From an uncultured Actinomycetota bacterium (GTDB lineage Bacteria > Actinomycetota > Actinomycetes > S36-B12 > GCA-2699445): a stretch of DNA of 64,000 bases. Shown here in pieces: positions 35,352 to 45,228 of this stretch. The stretch covers positions 17,172 through 81,171 of the forward strand of contig CAVXYG010000012.1 of NCBI GenBank assembly GCA_963766005.1, read 5' to 3'. The position numbers and the translations under genes are program-made. Under the pieces are notes generated by a model. The model was not told where the DNA came from and searched no databases. It saw nothing but the letters and a program-made list of their open reading frames with translations. The number at the start of each line of letters is the position of its first letter. Within the stretch, counting starts at the first letter, position 1.

Positions 35352-35762
35352 CAGCTCCGGGCTGTCGGGGATGCCCAGACGTCTGGAGCGGGCCTCGCCG
35401 TAGGTTTGGGCGGGGCCGATCCGGGGCATGCTCAGGGTGTCCGCAGAACTCCCCGACAGGGCCCGCGATTCGGAGCCCAAGGGGATCGAGCTCGGATCCT
35501 CGGCCAGCCGCCGAGGCTGGAGAATTGGCTCGTCCGTTTGGCCATGTGTGGAACGGACTTCGAGGTCAGCCCTTCGGGGGTTGGGTTGACCGGTGCCCGG
35601 GCCGTCCTGGAGGCGGTCCGGGTTTCTCTGGCGCCCCGAGACTCCGGTGGCCTTCCCCTCGCCCCGTGACATTGCTCACCACGTATCGGCTTGCGCTCAG
35701 GCAGCGCCGTCTGGTCACACTGGAATCCCATGCACGTCTCAGATGTGTCACAAGGAGTTCCT

Positions 35763-36458
35763 GTGAAGGTGAGAATCCTGGCCATGGCCGGTGCTGCCGG
35801 AGTCCTGGCCGCGGTGACGCTGGTCGTTGCCCAGCCGGCGGCGGAGACGACGACCGCGCTCATGCCCGACACCGCGCCCCGAGCGGTGGCAGCGATCGAG
35901 CTGGAACTGAACGCGGTCGAGCGGGAAGCCGCCCGGGTCGCAGCGGAGGCCTCGCGCCGGGAGGTGCCGGCGGTGCTGGCCGAGCGCGAGGAAGCGCGCC
36001 GAGTCGAGCAGGAGCAGGCGCGCGCCGCGGCGGAGGCCAAGGCGCGGCAGGAGGCGGAGGCGAAGGCGGCGGCTGAGGCGAAGGCGGCGGCTGAGGCCGA
36101 GGCCAAGGCCGCGGCGCCGGCGGCCCCGTCGACGGGGCGTCCCACGAACGACTACGGGATCGCGGGCAGCGCCTACACCGGGCCGATGTACAACGCGGGC
36201 TCGGAGTCCACGCGCAAGTGCATCGTGGCCAAGGAGTCCGGCGGCAACTACGGGATCGTGTCGAGCAACGGCCGGTACCACGGGGCGTACCAGTTCTCGC
36301 GTCCGACCGGCGATGCCACCGCCCAGCGGATGGGCCGGGCGGATCTCGTGGGCACCCCGGTGAGCCAGTGGAGCCGCTACGAGCAGGACATGGCGTTCTG
36401 GACGCTGTGGAACAACGGTGCTGGGCGGGGCAACTGGCCAACCGCGGCGGGCTGCTGA
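35763..36458 (+). CDS. secreted protein with Ala/Glu/Lys-rich linker and C-terminal Rpf/Apf-like transglycosylase-like (lysozyme-fold) domain
   Basis: GTG 35763 preceded by AAGGAG, 231 aa. Signal peptide VKVRILAMAGAAGVLAAVTLVVAQPAA. C-terminal C..ESGGNYG...G.YQFS....W...C pattern. Confidence 0.75.
   Translation: MKVRILAMAGAAGVLAAVTLVVAQPAAETTTALMPDTAPRAVAAIELELNAVEREAARVAAEASRREVPAVLAEREEARRVEQEQARAAAEAKARQEAEAKAAAEAKAAAEAEAKAAAPAAPSTGRPTNDYGIAGSAYTGPMYNAGSESTRKCIVAKESGGNYGIVSSNGRYHGAYQFSRPTGDATAQRMGRADLVGTPVSQWSRYEQDMAFWTLWNNGAGRGNWPTAAGC
36105..36458 (+). repeat. 354-bp direct repeat, copy 1 (3' end of the first Rpf-like gene)
   Basis: Identical to 36817..37170 at an offset of 712 bp, apart from one synonymous difference (T at 36420 versus C at 37132). 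Confidence 0.9.
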
Positions 36459-36587: not shown

Positions 36588-37170
36588 ATGATGAAGCGCA
36601 CTGGAGCCGCTGCCGGTGTTGCGGTGCTGCTGGCCTCATCGCTGGCCCTGGCCGCCGGCGCGCAGGCCGACCCGGCCATGAACATCAGCCGCAACGCGAT
36701 GGTCGTGGACAGCGTCAGCGCATTCGTCGCCGCTGAGGACGTGCGGATCGCGGCTGAGGCGAAGGCGCGTGCGGAGGCGGAGGCGGAGGCGGCAGGCGAA
36801 GGCGGCGGCTGAGGCCAAGGCCGCGGCGCCGGCGGCCCCGTCGACGGGGCGTCCCACGAACGACTACGGGATCGCGGGCAGCGCCTACACCGGGCCGATG
36901 TACAACGCGGGCTCGGAGTCCACGCGCAAGTGCATCGTGGCCAAGGAGTCCGGCGGCAACTACGGGATCGTGTCGAGCAACGGCCGGTACCACGGGGCGT
37001 ACCAGTTCTCGCGTCCGACCGGCGATGCCACCGCCCAGCGGATGGGCCGGGCGGATCTCGTGGGCACCCCGGTGAGCCAGTGGAGCCGCTACGAGCAGGA
37101 CATGGCGTTCTGGACGCTGTGGAACAACGGTGCCGGGCGGGGCAACTGGCCAACCGCGGCGGGCTGCTGA
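36588..37170 (+). pseudogene. second Rpf/Apf-like secreted protein gene, interrupted by a +1 frameshift
   Basis: ATG 36588 (MMKRTGAAAGVAVLLASSLALAAGAQA signal peptide) runs into TGA at 36810-36812. The catalytic-domain frame (ORF 36769..37170) is +1. The break lies near 36792-36796, inside a GCGGAG/GCGAAG codon repeat. Confidence 0.65.
36817..37170 (+). repeat. 354-bp direct repeat, copy 2
   Basis: See copy 1. 353 of 354 positions are identical by eye. Confidence 0.9.
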
Positions 37171-40291: not shown

Positions 40292-40523
40292 GGTAGTTCC
40301 TGCTCTCGTGGTGTGAACCGATACTTCTAGTGTTCCCCAATAGATGCGGCTCGACATCGTCCCCGACCGGCAGTATTCACTGGCTCTCGCTATTGCTCGA
40401 GTATGAATCTGGTCGGAGGTGCTCGAGGTGGTCGAGCCTCACGTGAACACCCGCAGCACCACCCGCTCGAATCACTGCCAGGCGCGCGGGCAGGCAGGTC
40501 GGTGCGTGCTTGTCCCGACACGA

Positions 40524-40570
40524 CCGAGCGGGGGCGCAGCGACCGTGGTGGTCGCCGCGCCCCCGCTCGG
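40524..40570 (-). terminator. strong hairpin downstream of the signal peptidase gene
   Basis: 21-bp stem (CCGAGCGGGGGCGCAGCGACC / GGTCGCCGCGCCCCCGCTCGG, one mismatch) with a 5-nt loop. Ends 34 nt after the stop at 40604. No U-tract. Confidence 0.6.
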
Positions 40571-40603
40571 GTGAGTGCGGATCAGGCTGGTGGGTGGGTG
40601 CGG

Positions 40604-41122
40604 TCAGACGGCGGCGGGTTCCGGCTGCGTCTCCTGGTCGTGGGGTTCCGGCTCGTCGTCGCGGTGGCCGGTGATCGCTGACAGCAGTACCGCGGCGGCC
40701 GCGACCACGAGCAGCAGGGAGGCCAGCCCGGCCGGTGTCTGCAGGAACTGCACCGCCATGCCCAGCCCGGGCGACACGCCGACGACGGTGCCGACGATGT
40801 CCTGGGAGGTGGCGACGAAGGGATCGGCCTGCGCGTTGGCGTCGCCCTTGGTCACCAGCGTCCCGTCGGCGTCGATGTCGAGCAGCCGGTGGGTGGTGAC
40901 GCCCTGGCCGACGCGGAAGGAGATGACGTCCCCGGCCTCCGGCTCGGCGCCGGTGTCGACCAGCACCAGCGAGCCGGTGGGGATCTGCGGCGCCATCGAC
41001 GCCGACTCCACCACGTAGGCGCGGTACGGCGCGGCACCGGTCGCGAACAGGCCGGCGGCGACCAGGAGCACGACGGCGGCCGCGGCCAGGACGACACCGA
41101 GGACTCGGGTGATGGCGGTCAT
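40604..41122 (-). CDS. signal peptidase I, SipW/archaeal-eukaryotic type (S26B)
   Basis: ATG 41122 in ORF 40604..42244, 172 aa. N-terminal TM, then VVESASMAPQIPTGSLVLV (Ser nucleophile), ISF...TTHRL (His), KGDAN, and a C-terminal TM helix. Confidence 0.8.
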   Translation of the reverse strand: MTAITRVLGVVLAAAAVVLLVAAGLFATGAAPYRAYVVESASMAPQIPTGSLVLVDTGAEPEAGDVISFRVGQGVTTHRLLDIDADGTLVTKGDANAQADPFVATSQDIVGTVVGVSPGLGMAVQFLQTPAGLASLLLVVAAAAVLLSAITGHRDDEPEPHDQETQPEPAAV

Positions 41123-41183
41123 GGGGATCCCTTCAGGAGCAGGACGGGTGCGGGCGGGGAGGCGGCGGGCCGGGAGTGATGCG

Positions 41184-41222
41184 CGGCGAGCCGGCCCGCG
41201 GGGTGCGCGGACCGGCTCGCCG
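41184..41222 (-). terminator. hairpin between the TasA-like and SipW genes (possible attenuator or partial terminator)
   Basis: 11-bp stem at 41184-41194 / 41212-41222 (core GCGAGCCGG / CCGGCTCGC). Begins 29 nt after the TasA-like stop at 41251. Confidence 0.35.
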
Positions 41223-41250
41223 GACGGGCCTCCCGGAGGCCCGGTGCGGC

Positions 41251-41841
41251 TCAGGCGCCGGGGTTGATGCCCGGCTGGGTGGCCACGACGCTGTAGGGCA
41301 GGCTCAGCGGGATCGCGATCGGCAGCTGCGTCTGCAGGTTCTCCGACAGCTTCAGGGAGAACTCCACGGTCGCGGTGTCGCCCGGGACCAGGCCCTCGGT
41401 CAGCTGCAGGTCCGACGGCAGCGGGGCCACACCCGGCGTGCCGGGCGGGTAGTTGCCGTTCAGGTTGTCGGAGAAGAACACGCGCTCCCCGTCGACGGTG
41501 ATCTCGATCTCGGCGTAGGTGCCGAGCTGGTTGACGGCCTTGAAGGTCGGGTGGTTCGGATCGAACTGCAGCCACACGTCCTGGGCGTTGCGGCCGATGT
41601 TCTTCACCTCGAAGTCGCCGGTGGCCACCTCGCCCGGCAGCAGCGATCCCAGATCCAGGTCCGGGGTCGTGGTGCGGTTGCCGTCGACGCTGACGGCGAT
41701 GCTGCCCATCGACATGGTGATCGCGCCGCCGGAGTTGATGTCGGAGAAGTAGCTGCTCGTGGTGCCCACGGCGGCGGCCCCCAGGCCCAGTGCCACCACG
41801 ACGGCGGCGGCGCTCGCGACGATCTTGCGGTTCTTGCTCAT
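41251..41841 (-). CDS. TasA/camelysin-like secreted protein with a SipW-cognate signal peptide
   Basis: ORF 41251..41841, 196 aa. MSKNRKIVASAAAVVVALGLGAAAVGTTSSYFSD matches the SipW-dependent signal peptide class (...G(T/S)xAYFSD). Beta-rich body. Confidence 0.8.
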   Translation of the reverse strand: MSKNRKIVASAAAVVVALGLGAAAVGTTSSYFSDINSGGAITMSMGSIAVSVDGNRTTTPDLDLGSLLPGEVATGDFEVKNIGRNAQDVWLQFDPNHPTFKAVNQLGTYAEIEITVDGERVFFSDNLNGNYPPGTPGVAPLPSDLQLTEGLVPGDTATVEFSLKLSENLQTQLPIAIPLSLPYSVVATQPGINPGA

Positions 41842-42129
41842 GATGGTCTCCTACGAATGCTCGGGCAGCCCCGACGGAATCCGCGGGCTGCGACTGTGCG
41901 ATGAGAATCGGCCCCCCGCCCGCCTTGTCCCCAAGGCCCCCGGTGGAGTGTCGGTTCCGTCTGACACCCCGGGTATCCCCCAACCCCGGCACCGCAACCC
42001 CGATCCGCCCCCGCCCGAACCCTGCCCGAACATGCCCCGAACGAACCCACGAACTCCTGCCGCAAGACCAACACCCAAGACCCCGTGGATCCAGGGTCGA
42101 TGCAGGTTGCGGTGCCATCGCTGTGGCTG

Positions 42130-42400
42130 GGCGACGACCTCCGAGGCCTGCAGCCAGAGGCTCGACGGAGTCGTGATCGCGCCCGGTGCCAAGACCGCCG
42201 TCTTCTTCGACAACCTGACCGACCCCGGTCACGTCCGGGAACACAGGTTGCGCCGCCTGGCCGACGAGCGCCCCACGATCCTCACCGTCGGCACCCGACC
42301 CTGGACCCTGTCAGCCGGGTCCGCGGCGACGGCACTCCGGTCCCGTGGACTCCCCGGGAGTCCGCCCTCCTTGAGGGCCTGATGCGCCGCAGAGGTACCC
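42130..42400 (+). pseudogene. decayed OmpR/PhoB-type response regulator remnant (linker plus start of winged helix)
   Basis: Two frames together read ...HRLRRLADERPTILTVG / PTLDPVSRVRGDGTPVPWTPRESALLEGLMRRRG, which resembles ...RVRALLRR...L.VG.L.LDP..R.V.R.G..V.LTPREFALLE.LMRR.G. Frameshifted near 42290 and lost after 42400. Confidence 0.3.
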
Positions 42401-42520
42401 GCTGCAACGCCGACGGGCCTGGCCACCAGGACGCCGACGCCGCCGACGAGACCACCTGAGCGATCGCCCCCCGCCGCAGATCGCCTTGGTGGCCCGCAGT
42501 GACGGCATCATAGAAGGACT

Positions 42521-43429
42521 GTGATGAAGACCAGCAGGCGCGCACCACGAGCCATCCGCATTGTCGCCGCCGTCACCGCGGTGGCCGCCCTGGCAGGCGG
42601 GTCATCCGCATGCTCCCCTTCCGGGGAGCCCACGACCGACCAGTCCTCCGGACCCGCCCCGACCTTGGCGCAAGCCCCGACGACGCGCCTGGCCGTGGCT
42701 GGCGATACCGGCACCGGGGCAGGCAGCGCCATCGACGGCACCGTCGAGGCCATGCTCGCCCAAGACGACGGCAACGGCTACGACGGCCTGCTCCTCCTCG
42801 GAGACCTGATCTACCCCGAGGGTGACGCCGAGCAGGCTCCGGCCCGCATCAGTGGGGTGTTCGAGCCTCTGACGCAACGAGGTGCCCGGCTGATCCCGGT
42901 CCTGGGCAACCACGACTACCTGAGCGGGGAACAGGCTCAGGTGCTCCAGGCGATCGGGCGTTCGACGTCGTGGTACGTCGAAGAGGTAGGAGTCGTCCGC
43001 GCACTCGTGCTCGACACCGAGCAGGTCGACAACCCCGAACAGCGCGCCTGGCTCGAGGAAGCGCTCGCTGCCCCGACGGAGGCGCCCTGGACAATCGTCG
43101 CGATGCACAAACCCGCCTATTCCGCCGGACACCACGGATCGGACGAAACGATCCAGGAAGCATGGGTCCCACTCTTCGAGCAGTACGACGTCCCCCTGGT
43201 CCTCGCCGGGCACGACCACGACTACCAGCGATCGATCCCGATCAACGGCGTCACCTACGTCGTCTCCGGCGGAGCCGCGAAGCTGCGGCCGACCGGGAGC
43301 CGGGACTTCACGGCCGCCAGCGCCTCGATCCGTCACTTCGTCGACTTGGCGATCTCCCCCACCTCGATCACGGGTCGCGCCATCGACCAGGACGGGAACT
43401 TGATCGACTCCTTCGAGATCCGTCAGTGA
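42521..43429 (+). CDS. secreted (probable lipoprotein) metallophosphoesterase
   Basis: ORF 42521..43429, 302 aa. Signal peptide ending LAGGSSAC. GDTG, GDLIYPEG, GNHDY, HKP, GHDHDY calcineurin-like motifs. Confidence 0.85.
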   Translation: MMKTSRRAPRAIRIVAAVTAVAALAGGSSACSPSGEPTTDQSSGPAPTLAQAPTTRLAVAGDTGTGAGSAIDGTVEAMLAQDDGNGYDGLLLLGDLIYPEGDAEQAPARISGVFEPLTQRGARLIPVLGNHDYLSGEQAQVLQAIGRSTSWYVEEVGVVRALVLDTEQVDNPEQRAWLEEALAAPTEAPWTIVAMHKPAYSAGHHGSDETIQEAWVPLFEQYDVPLVLAGHDHDYQRSIPINGVTYVVSGGAAKLRPTGSRDFTAASASIRHFVDLAISPTSITGRAIDQDGNLIDSFEIRQ

Positions 43430-43540
43430 GCAGAGGGACCTGCAGGAAGGCGGGTGACGGTTCCCACCACATGGCCCTCTTGGCAAAGGGTCTGGTGCCC
43501 CACGGTTCCGGATCGGACACCAACTCGTTGACGAGGGACC

Positions 43541-43569
43541 GACCCCATGCGCTCCGATCGCATGGGGTC
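43541..43569 (+). terminator. hairpin downstream of the metallophosphoesterase gene
   Basis: GACCCCATGCG (43541-43551), 7-nt loop, CGCATGGGGTC (43559-43569). Perfect 11-bp stem, about 110 nt after the stop. Confidence 0.4.
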
Positions 43570-43980
43570 CGGCTAGGCGATGGTGGGGGGATGGCGCTGC
43601 TCCGCGTCCAGCACACCACAGCACCGCGACCGAACCGCAAGCGGTGATCCTCGAGGCGCGATACCGGCCCGAGGCAAGCCTCACGCTCACCGCGGAGGTC
43701 GATCGGTCCCGCCCTTGCGCTGCCGGTGGAGCACACACCATCGTCGTGTCAGTCACAGCTGGCTGCAGGCGAGGACCAGCATCACCATGGAGGCGGGGGG
43801 CGGCGGGGCTTGGCGAGCGGCCGGTGTCGGTGGACGAGCCGCTGGCGCGCCACGCGGTAGCGGAGGGAGAGGACTCCCGACCTGAAGGTGCGGGTATCGA
43901 CGAGTTCGAGCTTCCCGCGACGCTCGTGCCGGGGGAAGAACGCACATGCCGCCGCCAACCAGCACCTCGTAGACCCTGGG

Positions 43981-44199
43981 CCGGTACTCGTCGATCAGGT
44001 GCAGCGCAGCAGCCCCGGCGGCGAGGGTAGCGCCGCCGATCGCGATCTCGCCCTCCCCGCGCCCCGCCCGCAGGCGCCCGATCTCCTCAGCCAGGCCGCC
44101 GGAGGCCAGGCGGGCGTTGCCCGGGATCGCGACGATGTCCGGTCCCTGAGCCAGGACCCACGCCAGCGCGAGCCTCGCCCAAGCCGGCTGGTGACGATC
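43981..44199 (-). pseudogene. aldo/keto reductase C-terminal fragment
   Basis: Minus-strand frame reads PAWARLALAWVLAQGPDIVAIPGNARLASGGLAEEIG..., matching the AKR C-terminal block (tpaQlALAWvLaq...vIPG...leen). No N-terminal part is present. The fragment abuts the stop of the gene at 44217. Confidence 0.35.
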
Positions 44200-44216
44200 G
44201 CCAGATCGACTGCTGT

Positions 44217-44891
44217 CTACAGGGCGACCACGCGGTCGCGGATCGCATCGAGCGTCTTGGGAGGCAGGTCGGCGAGGCCGCAGAGCTCCTCAGCACTGGC
44301 GAAACCCCCGAGGTGGTCGCGAGCCTCGATCAGAGCGCGCGCATGGTCGTGGCTGAGCCCCAGGTGAGACACGAGGACCGCCTCAGGAACATGGTTGACG
44401 TCCACGAGCCCGCCGTCGTCGTACTGCCGACGGAGGTCCGGTCGTCCGATCATCAGGTCCCGTGCCAGACCCGGGTCCTTCCTGCTCAGCGCCACCGACT
44501 CCTCGCGGCGCTTGCGGGCAGCGAGGGCGCTGGAGACGGCCGGATCGAGGGCGATCGGGGCGATGGACAAGGCGTTCCCGGCGACGGAATGCGACGGCGC
44601 GAAGACCGCCTCTCGGGTGCGGAACGCCTGCATCGTGCCGGCGACCGCCAAGACCACGGCGATTGCAGCGCCAACGTTCTGCATCGGTGTGCTGCTCCCG
44701 TCGAGGTTGGACGCGCCGCTCATCAGGCTCCACGCGACGATGTCGCCAACGATCAGGCAGGCAGCCCAGAACCAGAGATCGCGGCGTTGCAGCTTGATGG
44801 CTGCGTGCAGGGCCGGGATGAACGCGATCATGCCGAAGGTGTAGGCGGGGGAGAGGGCCCACCAGAGGCGCGAGGACGACCTGGGCAGCAC
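44217..44891 (-). CDS. membrane protein with a C-terminal helix-hairpin-helix (ComEA-like) domain
   Basis: ORF 44217..44891 (GTG start), 224 aa. Four predicted N-terminal TM helices. C-terminus VDVNHVPEAVLVSHLGLSHDHARALIEARDHLGGFASAEELCGLADLPPKTLDAIR is HhH-like. Confidence 0.65.
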   Translation of the reverse strand: MLPRSSSRLWWALSPAYTFGMIAFIPALHAAIKLQRRDLWFWAACLIVGDIVAWSLMSGASNLDGSSTPMQNVGAAIAVVLAVAGTMQAFRTREAVFAPSHSVAGNALSIAPIALDPAVSSALAARKRREESVALSRKDPGLARDLMIGRPDLRRQYDDGGLVDVNHVPEAVLVSHLGLSHDHARALIEARDHLGGFASAEELCGLADLPPKTLDAIRDRVVAL

Positions 44892-45228
44892 GGCGGTGGC
44901 CGGATGGACATGCTCTGTCCACTGCCGACCGTCCCACCACCGCTGACGGCCCGAGCCGGCGCTCTACCAACCTGCGGGAGCGTACTTCTCGCTCATGATC
45001 TCCTCGTTTGACGGCCGGCGGTCTACCGCAGCGACTCGGAGCCAGTGACGGCACCGAGGAGTTCGCGCGTCCCATGTGTCCCTGAGTGGTACCCGGAGGA
45101 GGATCGGTCGAAACGAGCTTCGGCGGACGGCGCAGTCGCGCCCGACCTGTCACCAATGTCGCAAACGGGTTGCTCTAGCGTCGCGTTCCTGCTTTGCTCG
45201 CTTCGGACTGCGTCTGTGGAGGTCGTCG

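Follow-up and report, generated by a model that had tools for sequence, protein, structure and literature searches.

A TasA-like subunit and a SipW-type signal peptidase as a candidate two-gene fibre module in an uncultured actinobacterium

TasA-type fibres form the protein scaffold of Bacillus biofilms and belong to one superfamily that spans bacteria and archaea. When first reported, TasA was seen as an antimicrobial protein associated with spores, and camelysin as a protease. Here we describe a gene pair of this superfamily in 64,000 nucleotides of DNA from an uncultured Actinomycetota bacterium (GCA_963766005.1, contig CAVXYG010000012.1, positions 17,172 to 81,171; this whole stretch is called the window). 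A gene for a TasA-like subunit (41251-41841, minus strand) is followed by a gene for a SipW-like type I signal peptidase of the S26B class (40604-41122, minus strand). The two-gene operon is, in our judgement, probably a self-contained extracellular fibre module that works without TapA.

In Bacillus subtilis the fibre (8AUR) is encoded by tapA-sipW-tasA, which likewise includes a dedicated S26B peptidase. The donor strand of TasA spans residues 28-38 and is held by F29, I32 and F39, and monomeric TasA is stable and soluble (PMC9674648). The window subunit has the C-terminal core motif ATQ in common with TasA, and its F32 and I35 align with the donor-strand residues F29 and I32. It differs in that it is about 70 residues shorter, has 14% identity to B. 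subtilis TasA in a structural alignment, has no counterpart of the C-terminal tail (residues 239-261) through which TasA makes a second subunit interface, and comes from a high-GC actinobacterium. It is also not accompanied by TapA.

Without TapA, the sipW-tasA pair of B. cereus is sufficient for fibre formation in a heterologous host (PMC4292775), so the absence of TapA is not unusual. The B. cereus locus (with calY) likewise combines a co-transcribed SipW-type peptidase with a TasA-family subunit, and in both systems the N-terminal signal peptide carries an x-F-x-D motif. Judged by analogy, B. cereus sipW-tasA is the closest functional counterpart of the window locus. The gene order is reversed, however, with the subunit first in the window and sipW first in Bacillus. 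The window cassette has neither a second subunit (CalY) nor the CapP/BC1280 chaperone, and no SinR/SinI regulator lies nearby.

Archaeal filaments of the TasA superfamily (Pyrodictium AbpX, AbpA bundling pili, cannulae and 0406 threads) also have a jelly-roll core and assemble by chaperone-free donor-strand complementation. They differ from the window protein in having hyperthermophilic hosts and in forming subfamilies separate from the TasA cluster in sequence space. The minimal abpX locus of P. abyssi consists of the subunit and a downstream TIGR02228 signal peptidase, and the TasA sequence cluster is reported to include Actinomycetota (bioRxiv 10.64898/2026.01.04.697558). The peptidases associated with AbpX are described with ten transmembrane (TM) helices, whereas here there are two. 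Homologues of the Pfam family PF12389 have already been mapped across bacteria and archaea (PMC9245690). For Gram-positives including actinobacteria, TIGR04088 and TIGR04089 are curated models of SipW-dependent and 'alternate-type' signal-peptide proteins, which cover the signal-peptide region only and come with no functional characterisation.

Subunit and signal peptidase

A first-pass annotation, made from the letters of the DNA alone, had described a 196-aa open reading frame (ORF) followed by a signal peptidase gene, and both ORFs are present as described. The subunit gene is preceded by an AGGAG ribosome-binding site at 8 nt and encodes a precursor that begins MSKNRKIVASAAAVVVALGLGAAAVGTTSSYFSD. 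The GC content of the window is 70.6%. At third codon positions (GC3) the subunit gene reaches 0.97, against about 0.85-0.92 in neighbouring genes, and we count this as expression evidence for the fibre-operon reading. A 77-aa antisense ORF within the subunit gene (41519-41752, plus strand, GC3 0.96) was rejected as a complementary-frame artefact of a gene with very high GC3.

The subunit was expected to belong to the TasA/camelysin family, and it narrowly passes the model of that family, PF12389 (Peptidase_M73), with 25.0 bits against a cut-off of 22.5 (E 2e-5). The match spans only residues 12-84 of the 196, equivalent to profile positions 9-75. The same model is matched by 10 of 29 members of the subunit's own family at E <= 0.01. 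The equivalog model of Bacillus TasA, NCBIfam NF046066, gives 17.9 bits against a cut-off of 450. Going by these scores, the subunit is a distant TasA homologue rather than an orthologue. A word-based protein search found 10 relatives, and 26 were found when it was repeated with a profile. In an exhaustive profile search the clusters (50% identity) numbered 133 at E <= 1e-30, rising to 1074 at E <= 1e-3. JGI's annotation of one homologue reads 'predicted ribosomally synthesized peptide with SipW-like signal peptide'. The subfamily, as these searches delimit it, is sizeable and poorly annotated.

Two proteins of this subfamily in the searched library carry TasA-like domains in tandem. P0113 (435 aa) has two matched stretches and P0121 (2990 aa) has 15. 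Such multi-domain proteins could be giant adhesins, or 'pre-assembled' fibres whose subunits are linked covalently in a chain.

In the family alignment T28 and D34 are invariant and F32 is nearly so, which gives the motif T-x-x-Y-F-S-D. Further conserved blocks are LPG, N-x-G-x-x-A-Q-D-V, F-x-S-D-N-L-N and a C-terminal V-A-T-Q-P-G-I/V-x-P, which reads VATQPGINPGA in the window protein. When a profile of the 29 family members was compared with the PDB, TasA ranked first, both as the fibre (8aur, E 1e-3) and as the monomer (5of1). The alignment takes in the F-x-D donor strand and the LPG region, and weakly the C-terminal ATQ.

An AlphaFold2 (AF2) model of the subunit was built on the 29-sequence alignment. 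Residues 50-196 form a beta-sandwich core with a block-mean pLDDT of about 51-90, mostly 73-90, with two loop blocks lower. Residues 1-46 are unstructured in the model, as expected for a donor strand that needs a partner. In a Foldseek search of the PDB only the TasA fibre 8aur_A (E 7.6e-5, probability 1.0) matches at E <= 1e-3. The lower-ranked matches are AbpA (7ueg), TasA (5of1), the 0406 thread (7pnb) and the CFA/I pilins. Structure prediction had been recommended as a check on the TasA assignment, and both the sequence profile and the predicted fold indeed place TasA first among PDB matches.

The signal peptide has the n-region MSKNRK and a hydrophobic segment at residues 7-26. The motif T28-S-S-Y-F32-S-D34 stands in register with T-W-A|A-F-N-D of TasA, and from this register cleavage is predicted after S30 (S30|Y31). 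The mature subunit would then comprise Y31 to A196 (166 aa, 17.5 kDa, pI 4.05, no Cys) and would present YFSDINSGGAITM as its predicted N-terminal donor strand. The window protein and its 10 closest homologues were scanned with the signal-peptide models. TIGR04088 is matched by 7 of these 11 proteins (best E 3.6e-8) and TIGR04089 by two, but the window protein itself matches neither, not even at E <= 10 for TIGR04088. The SipW-class signal peptide of the first-pass annotation finds support from these models among the homologues and not in the window protein.

The peptidase gene encodes 172 aa from an ATG at 41122. As had been proposed, its product is of the S26B (SipW/archaeal) type. It passes TIGR02228 with 71.5 bits against a cut-off of 51.85 and stays below the cut-off of the bacterial LepB-type model TIGR02227 (20.7 against 47). 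It matches Pfam S24/S26. The equivalog model of Bacillus SipW, NCBIfam NF046067, gives 59.2 bits against a cut-off of 190, and by this measure the two are not orthologues. The sole PDB sequence match is human SEC11C (7p2q, E 3.4e-4), in which SGSMEP, VHR and KGDNN align with S42 (SASMAP), H78 (THR) and D94 (KGDAN) of the window enzyme. We take these motifs to hold the catalytic Ser, His and Asp, as in SipW and SEC11. Kyte-Doolittle hydropathy peaks at residues 7-27 (2.85) and at about 132-150 (2.56), in keeping with the proposed TM anchors at both ends. The C-terminal tail is acidic and Pro-rich.

Conserved gene order and hairpins

The subunit gene precedes the peptidase gene on the same strand in every independent related locus that was examined, at 29-97% identity. 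The loci compared are L001, L004, L005/L010, L009, L011, L013 and L015/16. They include a soil metagenome from JGI (L001-3, 61% identity), Nocardioides sp. YIM 152588 (L005/L010, 32%), a Nanopelagicales metagenome-assembled genome (MAG; L009, 35%) and an Actinomycetes MAG (L011, 29%). No flanking gene beyond the pair is common to these loci. A metagenome scan with the single subunit protein gave no match, and a scan with the family alignment gave five distant loci. The conserved order, together with the travel of the pair as one cassette (see below), supports a functional link between subunit and peptidase.

Several loci carry additional copies or paralogues. On an ENA contig (L004, 3987-7617) the whole pair is in tandem duplicate, with apparent frameshifts in a long-read assembly, which again suggests duplication of the pair as a unit. 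L012 has tandem subunits. In L015 (1420-5053; identical to L016) a 233-aa TasA-like subunit is followed by a hairpin, a SipW-type peptidase of 459 aa and a 405-aa protein. The peptidase there is fused to a Lys/Pro-rich C-terminal tail of roughly 300 aa. The 405-aa protein has a TasA-like N-terminal domain and C-terminal repeat domains and is a possible tip or anchor subunit. Since distant loci have extra paralogues, the window locus is the minimal form.

The two genes of the window are separated by a spacer of 128 bp (41123-41250, minus strand), the length that the first-pass annotation had given. It contains a GC-rich stem-loop at 41184-41222 (inverted repeat I2), nested in a longer imperfect helix. 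The coordinates of this hairpin had been predicted exactly, but its stem has 17 bp instead of 11, including one G-U pair, and closes a 5-nt loop. For the spacer as a whole the folding energy is -70.6 kcal/mol (z = -3.2), a value that none of 200 shuffled sequences reaches.

A second hairpin (inverted repeat I1; 40524-40570, minus strand) lies 34 nt past the sipW stop codon, within DNA that is common to all copies of the cassette. Its perfect 21-bp stem, with one G-U pair and a 5-nt loop, has a z of -7.1. It had been called a terminator, and its coordinates and stem hold; neither this hairpin nor that of the spacer is followed by a U tract, however, and both were missed by a consensus terminator scan that requires one. 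Because the U tract is missing, the terminator role is uncertain, and we regard 40524-40570 as a probable operon terminator of the type without a U tract. The scan for consensus sigma-70 promoters and U-tract terminators found nothing relevant on the minus strand.

A hairpin directly 3' of the subunit stop codon recurs in L001 (13 bp, z -4.6), L004 (13 bp, z -3.8), L009 (z -5.6), L011 (z -5.1) and L015 (16 bp, z -5.6). L013 has a weaker one (z -2.6). Among the related loci examined it is absent only in Nocardioides (L010), where the genes abut. None of 200 shuffles matches the hairpin in L001, L009, L011 or L015. These hairpins are equivalent in position and unrelated in sequence. That position is kept despite sequence turnover supports the earlier idea of a high ratio of subunit to peptidase. 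The spacer stem-loop is a candidate partial terminator or stabiliser of the mRNA 3' end, which would raise expression of the subunit over that of the peptidase. Its proposed tuning role gains comparative support from these loci, and the ratio itself is a prediction.

The cassette in several chromosomal contexts

Contigs of the uncultured Actinomycetota MAG MFD09779.bin.2.234 (Microflora Danica) are the closest genomes. Positions 40345-42063 of the window (the cassette, minus strand, 1.7 kb) are 96-97% identical at the DNA level to L006 (4777-6496), L007 (4778-6412) and L008 (4777-6497), and the flanks of these copies have no blastn match to the window. The downstream border lies at 40345 in comparison with L006 and L008 and at 40429 in comparison with L007, so that the borders are sharp and slightly ragged. 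On the upstream side homology begins at 42063 and takes in a cassette-borne leader or promoter region of 222 bp (41842-42063, minus strand), which is 96-97% identical in the other copies. No convincing ORF was found in this leader, and none there with coding-type GC3. Rfam at gathering thresholds gave no match in the whole window, so the leader holds no known riboswitch or leader element.

L006 and L008 represent one and the same locus (98% over 6.1 kb), from which L007 is distinct: only the cassette (99.2%) and a 62-bp upstream fragment of an IS3-type transposase are common to L007 and L006/L008. The flanks also differ. They consist of unknown proteins of 1026 and 164 aa in L006/L008, and in L007 of PIN toxins with an HTH_21 transposase remnant upstream and a SulP/STAS permease downstream. 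In the window the cassette lies between a metallophosphoesterase and a HAD-IB hydrolase. The cassette therefore occupies at least three unrelated chromosomal contexts, with copies 96-99% identical in DNA; the MAG holds strain variants, and contexts are counted at the level of the genome or population, not as copies per genome. An exact-sequence cluster look-up placed variants of the peptidase on five contigs (432.8, 78.9, 151.9, 40.6 and 16.6 kb). The first-pass annotation had seen no second TasA paralogue. This is correct for the 64-kb window, in which tblastn found no second copy of the subunit or peptidase gene, but not for the closest MAG, whose other contigs carry near-identical copies of the cassette.

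Two syntenic relatives, L017 and L018 (HAD hydrolase 82% and 71% identical), run collinear to the window on either side and lack a 4.8-kb islet at 40292-45075 (no strand specified). In blastn comparisons 51716-45678 and 40232-37286 of the window are collinear and the 4.8-kb gap falls between them. The several unrelated contexts and the absence from syntenic relatives indicate, from comparison of sequences, that the cassette is an accessory unit which was recently moved or duplicated. Its GC content is that of the genome. Neither inverted nor direct terminal repeats were found at its borders, and no transposon, integron or Miniature Inverted-repeat Transposable Element (MITE) signature was seen. 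The IS3-type fragment upstream of the MAG copies has left no trace in the window. Plasmid and phage collections contain no homologue of the subunit, and an origin on a plasmid or phage is unsupported.

The borders shared by the copies enclose two genes only. Apart from the antisense artefact, 40345-42063 contains no other ORF with coding-type GC3. A TapA-like accessory gene is absent from the cassette, as had been claimed, and no second TasA-like N-terminus occurs in the window, although the window ORFs were not all scanned with a TapA-specific model.

The rest of the islet comprises a secreted metallophosphoesterase (42521-43429, plus strand), a membrane protein with an HHH motif (HHH/ComEA-like; 44217-44891, minus strand) and, between the subunit gene and the metallophosphoesterase, 679 bp of non-coding DNA (41842-42520). 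In the syntenic relatives the SLT and HAD genes flank the site of the missing islet. For the HAD-IB hydrolase the start called mechanically, ATG 40357, falls in cassette DNA that is common to L006 and L008. Its true start is probably ATG 40291 (MTPLIQHQ...), as this matches the recorded 278-aa protein P0176 with 100% identity. Elsewhere in the window, 35691-36458 and 36769-37170 (plus strand) encode adjacent paralogous secreted proteins with the same ...RGNWPTAAGC tail and a weak Rpf-type transglycosylase-like domain. Both are matched by a single stretch of L017, which makes them a tandem duplication of resuscitation-promoting-factor-like genes.

Proposed fibre assembly and rival explanations

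In the mechanism that we regard as best supported, the first gene would yield the 196-aa precursor in abundance, for export by Sec. The membrane-anchored S26B (Ser/His/Asp) peptidase would cut the unusual signal peptide after S30, at the conserved T-x-x|Y-F-S-D, and so release an acidic jelly-roll subunit with the donor strand at its new N-terminus. Subunits would polymerise head to tail, the strand of each entering its neighbour's open beta-sandwich, as in B. subtilis TasA and the archaeal bundling pili. No TapA-type nucleator would be needed, as in B. cereus. The GC-rich stem-loop past the subunit gene would cut read-through or stabilise the upstream mRNA, giving many subunits per peptidase. 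Export, cleavage and exposure of the donor strand are suggested by homology and conserved linkage; polymerisation is the step that we infer.

Several observations weigh against a fibre operon. The PF12389 match is marginal and partial, and the AF2 model has only moderate confidence (mean pLDDT 67). The TM-score (TMq) of the model to TasA is low at 0.39, partly because of the disordered 46-residue N-terminus. The window protein escapes TIGR04088 and TIGR04089, the hairpins have no U tracts, and Nocardioides dispenses with the spacer hairpin. The mature subunit is shorter than TasA and has no ordered C-terminal tail to form the second interface. A literature search found no paper that characterises any actinobacterial member and no experimental work, in agreement with the first-pass annotation, which had called the function of such pairs in Actinobacteria essentially untested.

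The main rival explanation is a secreted TasA-fold protein that does not polymerise, such as a soluble or wall-associated adhesin, a matrix, antimicrobial or spore-surface protein, or a camelysin-like protease, with a peptidase that only handles the atypical signal peptide. The first descriptions of TasA and camelysin and the Pfam name Peptidase_M73 favour it, as do the solubility of the TasA monomer (PMC9674648) and the minimal 166-aa mature domain, which is without the C-terminal interface of TasA. However, few columns of the family alignment are conserved as strongly as the donor-strand segment F-x-D-hydrophobic and the residues at the cleavage site, which is hard to account for in a monomer, and the best structural matches of the subunit model are all donor-strand filaments. 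The protease version is rejected, because the subunit sequence shows no HExxH or similar metalloprotease motif. On balance we hold a non-polymerising protein to be a serious competitor that is nonetheless unlikely. It is considerably less likely still that the N-terminal hydrophobic segment stays uncleaved, making a signal-anchored surface protein while the neighbouring peptidase serves other substrates. That the window protein falls below TIGR04088 detection and that its cleavage site is supported solely by the TasA register would fit such an anchor, whereas the strict co-occurrence and joint movement of the two genes, the retention of T-x-x-x-F-x-D precisely at the TasA cut position and the TIGR04088 matches of close homologues argue for cleavage. 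The most improbable explanation is that adjacency and hairpins are meaningless, the genes being unrelated and the palindromes a product of chance in a 70% GC genome. Chance folding is strong in GC-rich genomes and the spacer as a whole reaches only z -3.2, but gene order holds in loci of as little as 29% identity, the hairpin stays in place while its sequence turns over and beats every shuffle in four loci, and the cassette borders enclose exactly the two genes.

A bolder extension of the fibre module can be formulated. The 1.7-kb unit of leader, subunit gene, hairpin, peptidase gene and terminator might be an autonomous mobile 'fibre cassette' that has recently copied itself, or been transferred, to several chromosomal sites in an uncultured soil Actinomycetota lineage, and that suffices alone for a chaperone-free donor-strand-exchanged fibre on a high-GC Gram-positive cell. 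We consider this doubtful. If true, it would be the smallest self-contained bacterial fibre system, and one that spreads without recognisable transposon ends.

The new elements of this analysis are modest additions, namely an inter-gene hairpin conserved in position and a cassette-like spread to several sites. They extend the current picture of the TasA family and do not change it. With one 17.5-kDa subunit, one peptidase and no nucleator, chaperone, anchor or sortase, the locus is a very small and genetically isolated test case. It could reveal whether donor-strand fibres assemble unaided on actinobacterial cells and how a dedicated S26B peptidase recognises its substrate. The presence of the cassette in several contexts suggests that the capacity for matrix fibres is traded as an accessory trait among soil Actinomycetota.

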